The notes under the pieces: generated by a model
The model's database searches: none
What the model was told of the DNA's origin: nothing
What the model saw: only the letters and a program-made list of their open reading frames with translations
From: a virus
Length of the DNA stretch: 10,208 nt
Reading direction: 5' to 3' (one strand)
Virus genome (UHGV): UHGV-0247914
Translations under genes and position numbers: made by a program
In this document: one piece after another, positions 1 through 3,267 of the stretch
Layout: each line of letters starts with the position of its first letter
How positions within the stretch are numbered: position 1 is the first letter of the stretch

Positions 1-4
1 CATA

Positions 5-30
5 TCACTCTCCTTTGATGCGAATGCCAG
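5..30. repeat. Copy 1 of a 26-bp direct repeat at the 3' end of a gene (junction module)
   Basis: tcactctcctttgatgcGaatgccag at 5-30 matches 499-524 with one mismatch. On the minus strand it encodes the C-terminal I-x-I-K-G-E, the TGA stop and an AAGGAG that serves as RBS for the next gene. Confidence 0.85.
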
Positions 31-496
31 TGGTACTCATTCTCCTGATTTCCCAGAGCACACGAGGAACACCACCGTTTCCGACCGGATCGCGTTTACT
101 CCGCAGGGCGACGCTTGATTCCGCCCAGCTTTTTCTTGGAGGAAGCTCTTTCACACGAACAAAACCAGCTGCGCGGAGAGATGCTCCTGATTCATCTGCC
201 TGGGTGTACGTAATACAACGTTGATAACCCATAGCCTTTGCTGCCCGCCAGACAGCACCATAAAGCGCGCTGTTAGCGTTGCGTTCTCCTGTGGTACATG
301 TGCGATTTACTTCAAGCGTTAATCCATCGTCCAAATGTCGTGCAACAGGTCTACCGGCTGTCGCCACACCTATCAATTCTCCGGCATCATTTCTCAGACC
401 AATGCTGAATTTATGCCCCACCGGGGGTTTATTGTGTCGGTGATGTCTGGATATAAACGCCTTCGCAACACGAAGAGTAACCGGTGAAATCTGCAC
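5..496 (-). CDS. Hypothetical protein, possibly GNAT-fold acyltransferase-like; C-terminus ...GIRIKGE
   Basis: The ORF track gives 5..517 with a TTG start. An in-frame GTG at 494-496 sits 7 nt after an AAGGAG (complement of 504-509) and is the more likely start. Stop is TGA at 5-7. Central region (…TLEV…SALYGAVWRAAKAMGY…SGASLRAAGF) loosely resembles an acyl-CoA N-acyltransferase core; this is from memory, not a search. Confidence 0.5.
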   Translation of the reverse strand: MQISPVTLRVAKAFISRHHRHNKPPVGHKFSIGLRNDAGELIGVATAGRPVARHLDDGLTLEVNRTCTTGERNANSALYGAVWRAAKAMGYQRCITYTQADESGASLRAAGFVRVKELPPRKSWAESSVALRSKRDPVGNGGVPRVLWEIRRMSTTGIRIKGE

Positions 497-498
497 TC

Positions 499-524
499 TC
501 ACTCTCCTTTGATGCAAATGCCAG
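499..524. repeat. Copy 2 of the 26-bp direct repeat (junction module)
   Basis: tcactctcctttgatgcAaatgccag; 25/26 identical to 5-30. Encodes ...GICIKGE, the stop, and the RBS for the gene at 5..496. Confidence 0.85.
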
Positions 525-1170
525 CGACGCGTGGCACATTAACTTCCACGATGCGCACAGTTGGTTTGTACATCTCAATCGCTGTCAGCCAGTCAGCGCC
601 AGTCATGCGCTTTTCTGCATCGCCATTAGTCCACTTAACCGGTACACCAATAGCCTTCATCGCTATTTCTATTTCCCCGGCGATGGCGCTTTTTCCGCAA
701 CCAGTAAAACCAGAAACAACGACAAGAACTTCACCTTTGGCTGGTTTTATTTCCCGTGCTTCCAGTTCAGCAATACTTACGCATATCTCTGCGCCTCTAA
801 TCAGCCCCGGAACGTTCTTGTTTGGCCCAACTTCACCATCGACAAAATCAATCATCGCGTTACGAGCCATATCCACACCCTGCGCCCGCACTTCAGCAAG
901 GGAGGCGTCGGTGGCTGGGGTTTCCGTGAAGTTGTCCTCCCAACCGTAGTACTCCTGACGACAGAAGTTATTAAATTCCTTCTCCGACTGTTTAAGCCCC
1001 GCATTCTCCGCTGCCAGCGCATTAGCACGCACCAGTTGCACTTCCAGTTGCGTTGCCAAATCGCTGATCAGCTTTGCCACACTGCGCATATCAACGGCAC
1101 CACATTCTGCTTTCAGTTCCGAAGCCATCTCATGCCCGGCGGCAACTAACCCTTTGATATTACTTTCCAT
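499..1170 (-). CDS. Hypothetical protein with a predicted coiled-coil N-terminus and a Walker-A-like motif (GFTGCGKS)
   Basis: 223-aa ORF with ATG at 1168-1170 and GAGGG 5 nt upstream on the minus strand. The N-terminal third looks coiled-coil-like by eye. GxxxxGKS occurs about 70 residues from the C-terminus. Ends ...ICIKGE, sharing the junction repeat. Confidence 0.6.
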   Translation of the reverse strand: MESNIKGLVAAGHEMASELKAECGAVDMRSVAKLISDLATQLEVQLVRANALAAENAGLKQSEKEFNNFCRQEYYGWEDNFTETPATDASLAEVRAQGVDMARNAMIDFVDGEVGPNKNVPGLIRGAEICVSIAELEAREIKPAKGEVLVVVSGFTGCGKSAIAGEIEIAMKAIGVPVKWTNGDAEKRMTGADWLTAIEMYKPTVRIVEVNVPRVAGICIKGE

Positions 1171-1231
1171 CTTTACCCTCGCTTATCCACATAACTTATT
1201 GATTACACTGATAACTAAAAAGATCGTCGAT

Positions 1232-1576
1232 TCAGAACTCTTCGATGTTCCAGCCACCACCTGCTTTCTTTGGTTTAACCGTTACCCCGATGATTCGGAA
1301 CGGATACTGATCTGCGGCGACTTTGGTTTTCACCCTGGCGTCGTCGGTCCAGAAACCTTTCACTTCGTGCAGTTCCATCTCGCCGGTGGCGAGCATCACA
1401 GCAAAATCGGGCGTATAGAACGTGTTGTCAGCTAACCGTAGCTTGATACCCTCGAATCGATACCAGGCGATTTCCCCTGCACGTTTACGAAGCTCAAGGT
1501 GCTGGCAATACGCAGATTCTGTTTTGTTCATCTGGCCTGTTTTGAGTCGACCAAGAGCCTGTATCTGTTTTCTCAT
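1232..1576 (-). CDS. Small protein with a PD-(D/E)xK-like motif (possible VRR-NUC-like nuclease)
   Basis: 114-aa ORF with ATG at 1574-1576 and AGGGG 6 nt upstream. Contains TPDF...ELHEVKG, resembling a PD...E-x-K nuclease core. First gene after the P terminator. Confidence 0.55.
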   Translation of the reverse strand: MRKQIQALGRLKTGQMNKTESAYCQHLELRKRAGEIAWYRFEGIKLRLADNTFYTPDFAVMLATGEMELHEVKGFWTDDARVKTKVAADQYPFRIIGVTVKPKKAGGGWNIEEF

Positions 1577-1579
1577 GAT

Positions 1580-1594
1580 TTACCCCTGAGGTAA
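1580..1594. promoter_or_regulatory. Operator-like palindrome TTACC-CCTGA-GGTAA
   Basis: Perfect inverted-repeat half-sites TTACC/GGTAA with a 5-bp spacer. Overlaps the RBS region of the gene at 1232..1576. Confidence 0.5.
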
Positions 1595-1635
1595 TTAAAA
1601 ACCACATAAGACACGAAATCAATAGATCTTAGAAC

Positions 1636-1693: not shown

Positions 1694-2479
1694 TTACTTG
1701 ATAAATCCTGCCGCCTTTCCCCGCCTGTATTCCTCCATCAGCCACTGCGCCGGTGTTATTCCCCCCAGGGTAGCGGCGTTAGGCATACACCCGAAACTTC
1801 GCCCTGGTGGATGGTAAACGTCTCTCCCTGTGTCCGGAGGCGTACTCATGGGTTCTGGCTTTGCCTGTATGCTGATCACCGGATCGGGTATCTGCTGTCC
1901 GGAAGCCACCTTTTTCGCCCAATCATCGAGCAGCCTGCGCGCGTGTTTCTCAACCTCAATCTCGCTAAGCTGGCGCTGATACATTGCACGGCGGGTATCA
2001 CATACGACCCAGTACATAACCGGATGTCGCCACGGGAATCTTTCGGGACCACCAGGATATAAACTTTTTTCCTTGCTGTACCGGTGAAACTCCGCCATCA
2101 CATCGTCAATGGTGACGCCAAGAACCATCTTGCTGTCTTTACACCACTTGATGAATTGCCCTGGCGACGGCCAGAACGGAGACTCACTGGCGCGGGCGTG
2201 GCGCATACCAGCAGAAACCTGTTCACGGGTTCGGATCCCCCCTTCGGCAAACGCAGCAATCCACTGCTGTTTTGCAGCGACTTCCTGCTCTGGCGTCTTC
2301 AGGTTGGTTACCACTGCCGCCGGAAACAGTTGTTTCAGCTGTTTGAAAAGGGCATCAACAAGCCTCTCTGCTGACATGTTCACCACGTTGTCATTGTTGG
2401 TGTACTGATGCTCATAACCTGACATGCGAGAAAGGGCTTCTCCGTCACGGTTTTGTATCGCGGTAAAAACGTTGTTCAC
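1694..2479 (-). CDS. P: Replication protein P homolog (lambda P-like DnaB helicase loader)
   Basis: Central region QQWIAAFAEGGIRTREQVSAGMRHARASESPFWPSPGQFIKWCKD matches my recollection of lambda P (RRQWVLAFRENGITTMEQVNAGMRVARRQNRPFLPSPGQFVAWCRE). The ORF track starts at ATG 2492-2494, but GTG at 2477-2479 has GGAGGA 6 nt upstream and overlaps the upstream TGA as GTGA, so it is preferred. Confidence 0.85.
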   Translation of the reverse strand: MNNVFTAIQNRDGEALSRMSGYEHQYTNNDNVVNMSAERLVDALFKQLKQLFPAAVVTNLKTPEQEVAAKQQWIAAFAEGGIRTREQVSAGMRHARASESPFWPSPGQFIKWCKDSKMVLGVTIDDVMAEFHRYSKEKSLYPGGPERFPWRHPVMYWVVCDTRRAMYQRQLSEIEVEKHARRLLDDWAKKVASGQQIPDPVISIQAKPEPMSTPPDTGRDVYHPPGRSFGCMPNAATLGGITPAQWLMEEYRRGKAAGFIK

Positions 2480-3267
2480 AAGAAATCCTCCCATGCTTCA
2501 GGGCTGTTCCAGTGCGGAACGTTGTTATCAGGTAATGTTGATTGCTTCTGTCTGCTAATCTGCAGCCGCCTTGCCAGCTTCTGCTCCCACTGTGCCTGAT
2601 GGTATGCCTTACCCTCAGCCATCCAGTAAATTCTGAACTCTGCAAGTTCCTGTGCCGTTGGCAGACTGTCCAGGTAGATCCCCTGCAATGAGCTTTTCCG
2701 AAGAAAGTCATCTGATGGCTGCCATTGTTCATGCATGACAAATTTGCCTAATTGCCCTGGCCCACCAGGAGGAACAAAGTTATTCATCACGGCGTTGTTT
2801 GCGCCGGGGTCATGAGGCACAGAATCCCCGCTTTTTGTCCTGCTCTCCCTCTCTTGGTTAAATGACTGGTTATATGACTGGTTCTGGATCCCGTTTTTGG
2901 GATCATTCAACATCCCGTTTTTGGGTATATTCCCGTTTTCGGGTATATTCCCGTTTTCGGGTTCATTGCCCCACTCCCGGTTGCCTTTAATGTTCCCGTT
3001 TTTGGTTATATTAAGAGAGAAAACCCGCACTCTTTTTGTCGCTCCCTTTCTCTCTCCGGTATCTGAAATAAGCCCCATTTTCATGAGCGATATAAGCCCG
3101 GCCTGCACGGTTTTTTTATTCAGGCAAGTGTCTTTAACGAGGCGTTCTATGCTGGGGTAGCAGAGGTTATATTCATCGGCTCTGTCAGCCATCGAGAGCA
3201 GTATGAGCTTTAATGATGAGCTACCTGGATCTGTCTCCCAGGCCCAATCTGTTGCATGTCTGCTCAT
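2476..3267 (-). CDS. Replication initiator protein (lambda O-like functional analogue)
   Basis: 263-aa ORF with GGAG 8 nt upstream of ATG 3265-3267. N-terminal region looks like a winged-helix/HTH DNA-binding domain. A low-complexity NGNIPENGNIPKNG linker is encoded by DNA iterons. Sits directly upstream of, and coupled to, the P homolog. Confidence 0.75.
   Translation of the reverse strand: MSRHATDWAWETDPGSSSLKLILLSMADRADEYNLCYPSIERLVKDTCLNKKTVQAGLISLMKMGLISDTGERKGATKRVRVFSLNITKNGNIKGNREWGNEPENGNIPENGNIPKNGMLNDPKNGIQNQSYNQSFNQERESRTKSGDSVPHDPGANNAVMNNFVPPGGPGQLGKFVMHEQWQPSDDFLRKSSLQGIYLDSLPTAQELAEFRIYWMAEGKAYHQAQWEQKLARRLQISRQKQSTLPDNNVPHWNSPEAWEDFL
2889..3012. repeat. Iteron array inside the initiator gene (putative replication origin)
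   Basis: Five copies of TCCCGTTTT(T/C)GG(G/T)T at 2889, 2913, 2931, 2949 and 2994, mostly followed by ATAT. Copies 2-4 are spaced exactly 18 bp apart. Flanked by a TGACTGGTT x2 repeat (2863-2884) and a polypurine/polypyrimidine, moderately AT-rich stretch (3013-3060). Confidence 0.7.

Follow-up and report, generated by a model that had tools for sequence, protein, structure and literature searches.

The linkers of the modular theory of Susskind and Botstein, and of Botstein in 1980, are realised in phage genomes by boundary sequences. Those of the early left operon were reportedly described by Clark, Inwood, Cloutier and Dhillon in 2001, in J Mol Biol 311:657. Passages in two further papers attribute the linker idea to Susskind and Botstein 1978, and credit Clark et al. 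2001, working on phage HK620, with short conserved boundary sequences at the ends of genes and modules in lambdoid early operons, proposed to target homologous recombination (PMC3029335, PMC3233612). Comparable elements in T4-type phages are the PeSL (promoter-early stem-loop) cassettes, in which one gene or a small module lies between short, conserved regulatory sequences (Arbiol et al. 2010, PMC2839356). From the protein side, all Ea22 proteins have been reported to end in "+GE", that is K/R-G-E, a motif whose significance was given as unknown (Dydecka et al. 2020, PMC7093339), and the C-terminal domains of Ea22 variants are mosaics unrelated to one another (PMC10834534).

Here we analyse a repeated junction in a 10,208-nucleotide stretch of the virus genome UHGV-0247914, referred to below as the window. 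Judging from sequence comparison, this motif is most probably a linker that temperate phages of enterobacteria conserve at gene boundaries, and at which recombination between copies has repeatedly joined different modules. Like the lambdoid boundary sequences it is a short conserved stretch at gene ends within unrelated flanks, mosaic breakpoints coincide with it, and it occurs in lambdoid early operons including that of HK620, where this exact motif forms the hkaG/hkaF junction. In the window, in contrast to the early-left-operon boundaries, it sits in the rightward, nin-type region. It resembles the PeSL cassettes as a linker for homologous exchange, through which cassettes are inserted, deleted or replaced without disturbing expression (PMC2839356), but a PeSL is an intergenic promoter and terminator with a stem-loop, whereas the motif here is partly coding, taking up the final 8 codons of a gene, carries a ribosome binding site (RBS) rather than a promoter, and has no such structure. 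Its translated tail has the same C-terminal residues as the "+GE" motif and occurs in the same protein family (lambda Ea22 ends ...MMSDAGIRIKGE); the Ea22 papers treat these residues as a peptide motif, while here they are the translation of a shared DNA junction that is also found on genes other than ea22. Integron cassettes (attC/attI) are similar in that single promoterless genes lie between repeated sites, form an ordered array in which a given gene may be there or missing, and rely on an upstream promoter for expression. Unlike an integron, this locus has no integrase and no attC hairpin: folding gave no hairpin beyond shuffled controls, no recombinase is consistently linked to the motif in its varied contexts, and the repeat lies inside coding sequence. 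Exchange presumably proceeds by general or phage homologous recombination. This kind of element is already known and no new type of system is involved; the motif studied here is an especially clear example and a very abundant one. Neither its sequence nor its peptide, searched for literally, had a match in the literature covered, which did not include Clark et al. 2001, and PMC9836094 contains no discussion of linkers.

The repeat pair and the genes it joins

All coordinates are those of the whole window, and all genes in the repeat region lie on the minus strand (Table 1). A repeat finder placed TCACTCTCCTTTGATGCGAATGCCAG (copy 1) and TCACTCTCCTTTGATGCAAATGCCAG (copy 2) in one family of direct repeats (D5), 25/26 (96%) identical and 494 nt apart. 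A pattern search allowing up to 3 mismatches returned just these two copies in the window. None of 200 dinucleotide-preserving shuffles gave a match (chance expectation 0), which rules out a chance repeat.

On the minus strand, copy 1 reads ACT GGC ATT CGC and copy 2 reads GCT GGC ATT TGC, and both continue ATC AAA GGA GAG TGA, so that the gene ending in copy 1 terminates in TGIRIKGE* and the 223-aa gene ending in copy 2 in AGICIKGE*. Copy 1 is the canonical 24-mer, the form found in 119/133 GIRIKGE*-coding sites, and copy 2 differs from it by the single base CGC to TGC (R to C). Past copy 2 follows GA-GTG, the GTG being the start of the gene that ends in copy 1; past copy 1 follows T-ATG, at the window edge. 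In each copy AAGGAG lies 6-7 nt ahead of the next start. The 223-aa and 163-aa proteins gave no BLASTP alignment with each other at E<=100, so that no homology between the two repeat-ended proteins was found. These results bear out the preliminary description of the window on every count: the two near-identical copies, the I-x-I-K-G-E ending (GIRIKGE and GICIKGE) of two otherwise unrelated proteins, and the supply by the repeat of both a stop and an AAGGAG for the following start. The same description had a third gene apparently opening at the window edge, and related loci agree with this: there, an identical XF1762 3' end with TATG behind it opens ORFs of 60-220 aa.

Table 1. Positions of the boundary copies, genes and junctions in the window.
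Feature	Position	Strand	Remarks
ATG start of next, cut-off gene	1..3	-	One base past the TGA of copy 1; offset matches related loci
Boundary sequence copy 1	5..30	-	Last 7 codons (GIRIKGE) and TGA (7-5) of the XF1762-family gene; AAGGAG (15-10) for the next gene
XF1762-family / Mom-like gene, 163 aa	5..496	-	GTG start 496-494 (most likely); NF045478, phrog_1384
Cassette unit, 494 bp (XF1762 gene plus one boundary copy)	5..498	-	End of copy 2 to end of copy 1; five filled/empty locus pairs
Boundary sequence copy 2	499..524	-	GICIKGE and TGA (501-499) of the Ead/Ea22-like gene; AAGGAG (509-504) for the XF1762 gene
Ead/Ea22/Eae-like mosaic gene, 223 aa	499..1170	-	phrog_492/250/614 and phrog_11761; megablast pieces
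Second junction (IAELEARE), less perfectly conserved	752..775	-	Opens the Ea22 C-terminal module; pairs as 5' partner with the tail linker
DUF1064 protein	1232-1576	-	
Lambda-P-type replication protein	1694-2494	-	
O-like / DnaT-domain replication protein	2476-3267	-	

The gene between the two copies most likely starts at the GTG, giving 163 aa as in its homologues, and the program-assigned TTG start at 517 is unlikely. Its product belongs to the XF1762 family, matching NCBIfam NF045478 over residues 3-136 with 204.7 bits (cut-off 50, E=5e-61); it also matches phrog_1384, a "Mom-like DNA modification protein", while its match to the Pfam Mom model (PF25680) lies below the cut-off (22.4 vs 27.1). 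The conserved XF1762 core ends at about VLWEIRRM, and the last 9-10 residues are the appended linker tail, which falls outside the family models. Homologues at 81-87% identity have 153-154 aa and end in VLWEIRR(MK/GV)* without a tail, so the STTGIRIKGE tail is an add-on to the XF1762 protein.

The 223-aa protein has no Pfam or NCBIfam match, the Ead_Ea22 model PF13935 included, although this model is matched by eight other tail-bearing proteins. Its N-terminal part matches phrog_492/250/614, and residues 133-223 match phrog_11761. The gene is a patchwork, in which megablast pieces 499-774, 765-1020 and 992-1240 are found in different phages, and the N-terminal, central and C-terminal segments of the protein (the last being a module at about 499-774) each have different relatives. 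The matching DNA segments are annotated as eae-like or ead/Ea22-like (phiV10, D6 and others).

A separate set of four to five iteron-like repeats, ATCCCGTTTTTGGGTATATT, was noted at 2888-3012 inside the O-like / DnaT-domain gene, spaced 18 nt apart (24 nt for the first; families D1/D2). This is probably the phage replication origin.

Distribution of the motif and its association with gene boundaries

Exact matching to the 24-mer core, one position being left free, found the motif in at least 120 viral contigs, and a 37-nt consensus is present in 389 phage records. In lambda it forms the 3' end of ea22 (stop at 29847) and in P7 the upf88.3/upf89.0 junction; it also occurs in P22-like phages (EaA), in many Stx phages and in the P1-like elements D6 and SJ46. 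Among complete E. coli genomes, 2,937/5,426 (54%) carry it at a total of 6,098 places, 335 of them on plasmids, with up to 11 copies per genome. The range of the exact 24-mer appears to be enterobacterial. A scan of species-representative genomes is uninformative on host range, because 31 of the 38 contigs with the exact 24-mer have lambda-identical flanks and are thus lambda DNA in assemblies of unrelated taxa. Often these are low-coverage contigs of about 1 kb, or contigs of about 48.4-48.5 kb in Shewanella and Pseudomonas assemblies, and they indicate contamination with phage lambda. The other seven comprise two near-lambda fragments and five independent junctions (Escherichia sp. twice, Shimwellia, and MAG contigs labelled Segatella copri and Collinsella).

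Among the matches listed, 78-84 of 120 loci have the motif in the exo-xis context (leftward, from the recombination genes to xis/int), and 3-9 of 120 have it downstream of replication genes. The window, with its motif in the rightward, post-replication region, represents this minority context.

For comparison across loci, the copies were oriented in gene sense and the proximal 100 nt on each side were clustered. The 118 junctions among the matches listed comprise 14 upstream gene-end classes and 22 downstream gene-start classes in 56 combinations. Every copy in the loci analysed supplies the stop of the upstream gene, and 119/122 have a start codon (N-ATG or N-GTG) one base past the TGA, of which 108 open an ORF that is at least 50 aa long or runs off the locus. 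Column information falls to about zero outside -10/+27 of the 24-mer, giving the shared block sharp edges: a partly conserved CGCGCCGCT precedes the 24-mer and N-ATG follows it, for a block of about 26-37 bp. The consensus is (CGCGCCGCT)GGCATTCGCATCAAAGGAGAGTGA(N)ATG, with a core of about 26 bp and partial conservation to about 33-37 bp. Upstream genes are mostly PF13935 Ead/Ea22 genes with at least 8 unrelated C-terminal modules, and include XF1762 and an HNH_3-AP2 endonuclease. Among the downstream products are a dATP/dGTP pyrophosphohydrolase-DUF551 protein, a ClpX-zinc-finger protein, DUF551 proteins and several that have no known function.

BLAST matches between the window and phage records or E. 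coli genomes begin or end at 498-520. No complete E. coli genome of the 5,426 has window positions 1-1600 in one contiguous arrangement; at best 87% of this region is matched, with a methyltransferase gene in addition. In the closest chromosomal relative (locus L217) the order is P, DUF1064, a hypothetical protein, an Ea22-like gene with another C-terminal module, XF1762, DUF551, and further on terminase. The DUF551 gene of this relative, which follows the XF1762 gene, ends differently and not with the motif, so the motif marks some junctions and not all. The window region itself has only 2 motif-bearing gene junctions, and since the mosaic joint at 992-1020 within the 223-aa gene has no motif, the motif is not required for mosaicism.

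A related observation concerns lambda, where the ea22 junction (NC_001416, about 29,820-29,850) is followed by GATC and no start codon. Several other loci (L016, L035, L071 and others) have in this place a 7-codon vestigial ORF, ATGAGCAGGAATACGGGTTTGTAA, which runs into the same downstream sequence as that of lambda. This suggests that the lambda junction may be the deletion remnant of a former downstream gene.

The XF1762 gene was followed in an unbiased sample of 80 loci, collected by the XF1762 protein and not by the motif. Directly upstream of the E. coli-type gene there is almost always the motif or a diverged form such as AACATTGGCATCAAAGGAGAGTGA, its own 3' end is the canonical motif, and it has at least 10 different downstream partners. 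Five pairs of loci share the same upstream gene X and downstream gene Y, with X-M-XF1762-M-Y in one member and X-M-Y in the other (M being the motif). The length difference between a filled site and its empty counterpart is exactly 494 bp, which is the spacing of the two copies in the window, and the flanks are 85-100% identical over at least 100-600 nt. Across the XF1762 loci, nucleotide diversity stays low within the gene (about 0.015) and its tail (0.021), vs about 0.4 directly outside both motif copies.

In the preliminary description the repeat looked like a linker for repeated use, with short-homology recombination swapping gene modules there; its confinement to a single locus with no tie to gene boundaries would have spoken against this. 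The motif is in fact widespread and tied to gene boundaries, and the linker reading gains support, of a comparative kind, from the combinatorial joints, the breakpoints at 498-520 and the presence or absence of the 494-bp unit.

The relatives of the gene at 81-87% identity also provide observations on the junction itself. In tail-less XF1762 genes (L184-L198) the 3' end is ...ATCAGGAGAATGAAATGA and overlaps the following gene (ATGA); the E. coli-type gene (window 5-40) shares ...ATCAGGAGAATGA with them and then continues with GTACCACT and the linker, so the tail was grafted just past an older Shine-Dalgarno (SD)/stop/start junction. Relatives in L181-L200 have diverged junctions, for example CGCGCCGCTGGCATCAAGGAGGAGTCTGAGTGATG (RAAGIKEESE*, in which the stop overlaps the start), and further diverged tails, namely IKVEAE*, IKWEAE* and IGVKGE*. 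This family of diverged junctions in other phages points to lineage-specific versions of the linker.

DNA identity, peptide identity and competing explanations

A shared C-terminal peptide could be the object of selection in its own right, for example as a signal for degradation, docking or oligomerisation (AGIRIKGE) that is favoured on many unrelated proteins, with DNA identity secondary. The K/R-G-E ending common to the Ea22 proteins would fit such a tag, as would the diverged linker variants of other phages, which still encode RAAGI...E tails. We back-translated GIRIKGE-TGA with full codon degeneracy, searched the viral collection for the resulting pattern and examined 133 sites. The codons are identical in 119 of them, a single synonymous base (GAA, GGT or ATT) sets each of the other 14 apart, and none of the 133 differs at two or more positions, whereas peptide selection alone would allow far more synonymous variation; by a rough estimate, independent codon choice would produce the canonical string well under 1% of the time. 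Given this near-uniformity, the shared peptide is the translation of a shared DNA segment, and a convergent peptide motif is ruled out by the scan. Amino-acid changes are also found about as readily as silent ones (R to C in the window; R to G, I to T and E to D elsewhere), XF1762 orthologues in other phages do without the tail, and the tail lies outside the family models. We therefore consider a functional peptide tag very unlikely.

The 3' half of the motif, AAAGGAGAGTGA-N-ATG, is a textbook SD, stop and start, and its SD is predicted to be unpaired. It might thus be a translational-coupling cassette only, with mosaicism arising from random illegitimate recombination followed by selection, as in the Hendrix model, and most phage mosaic joints indeed lack conserved boundary sequences (PMC3029335). 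Yet the 5' half (GCTGGCATTCGCATC, with the partial CGCGCC) has no RBS role and is equally identical, and illegitimate joining would not restore one identical stretch of 26-37 bp in dozens of X|Y combinations that arose independently, nor give cassette differences of exactly one repeat unit. This explanation is unlikely as well. Comparison of the motif with its own gene found no hyper-conservation (pi 0.021 in the tail vs 0.015 in the XF1762 gene), so special selection on the linker is without support, and recent spread with hitch-hiking explains the uniformity of the motif equally well. A dedicated site-specific recombinase or homing nuclease targeting the motif, in the manner of an integron, would leave filled and empty sites bounded by direct repeats such as those seen here, and one class of tail-bearing genes encodes an HNH_3-AP2 endonuclease. 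That class, however, occurs once in 120 loci among the matches listed. No inverted repeat or hairpin was found in or around the motif, RNA and DNA structure not exceeding shuffled controls (z-scores +0.6 to +1.7), which also rules out a terminator or attC-like hairpin; and no recombinase gene is consistently linked to the motif in contexts that span exo-xis, the nin region and P1-like plasmids. A dedicated enzyme of this kind appears extremely improbable.

A Chi-like hotspot was considered separately and set aside on inspection, as GCTGGCAT and GCTGGTGG differ at 3/8 positions.

Proposed exchange at the linker and its meaning

We infer that homologous recombination (of the Red-beta, RecT or Erf type, or by RecA) underlies the joints seen in these genomes, and that the linker role may contribute to the persistence of the sequence. 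Every copy closes the upstream frame with GIRIKGE-TGA in the same phase and presents AAGGAG 6-7 nt ahead of the next start. Because stop, SD and start stand in fixed register, a crossover inside the motif would always yield two intact, translationally coupled genes, and every product would be viable. Homologous or single-strand-annealing recombination between copies in co-infecting phages, in resident prophages or in the same genome would in this way have joined different upstream modules to different downstream genes time and again, the upstream modules being for the most part alternative Ead/Ea22 C-terminal domains, along with XF1762 and HNH-AP2 genes. Where two direct copies bracket a single-gene cassette, as with XF1762 (494 bp), the cassette can be gained or lost precisely. 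The shared peptide tail is a by-product of the shared DNA.

The crossover or strand annealing is expected to fall inside the 26-37 bp of identity. The length of the motif fits published values for the shortest segment that pairs efficiently: with Red-beta this is 23-27 bp, with RecA 31-34 bp (PMC3945230). As this homology is at the lower limit for efficient recombination, rates may be low. Exchange of the Ea22 C-terminal module could use two such sites: in other phages, a segment coding for KRIAELEARE stands ahead of Ea22 C-terminal modules (45-84 aa) of at least five unrelated kinds, and BLAST pieces of the window also break at 765-774, at the second junction. The module at about 499-774 is bracketed by the two linkers and would thus be replaceable by double exchange.

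A more far-reaching version, which we regard as doubtful, would have a recombinase-independent cassette pool common to lambdoid, P22-like, epsilon15/phiV10-like and P1-like phages, in which motif-bracketed units, the 494-bp XF1762 gene among them, excise as circles and integrate again wherever one copy is present, via phage annealing proteins, the motif being actively maintained by concerted evolution or by selection for evolvability and not left as a passive scar. If true, such a pool would resemble an integron without an integrase.

It is an old debate whether phage mosaicism arises by linker-targeted recombination or by random illegitimate joining followed by selection, and clear examples of linkers are few. 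Here a single junction of 26-37 bp is found in more than half of complete E. coli genomes, links genes in dozens of pairings and flanks on both sides a gene that is either there or cleanly missing. A DNA linker accounts for both the "+GE" ending of Ea22 and its unrelated C-terminal mosaics, and offers a simple account of the former as the translated end of the linker. For the annotation of these phages it follows that shared C-terminal peptides and "Ea22-like" names may reflect the junction and not protein homology.
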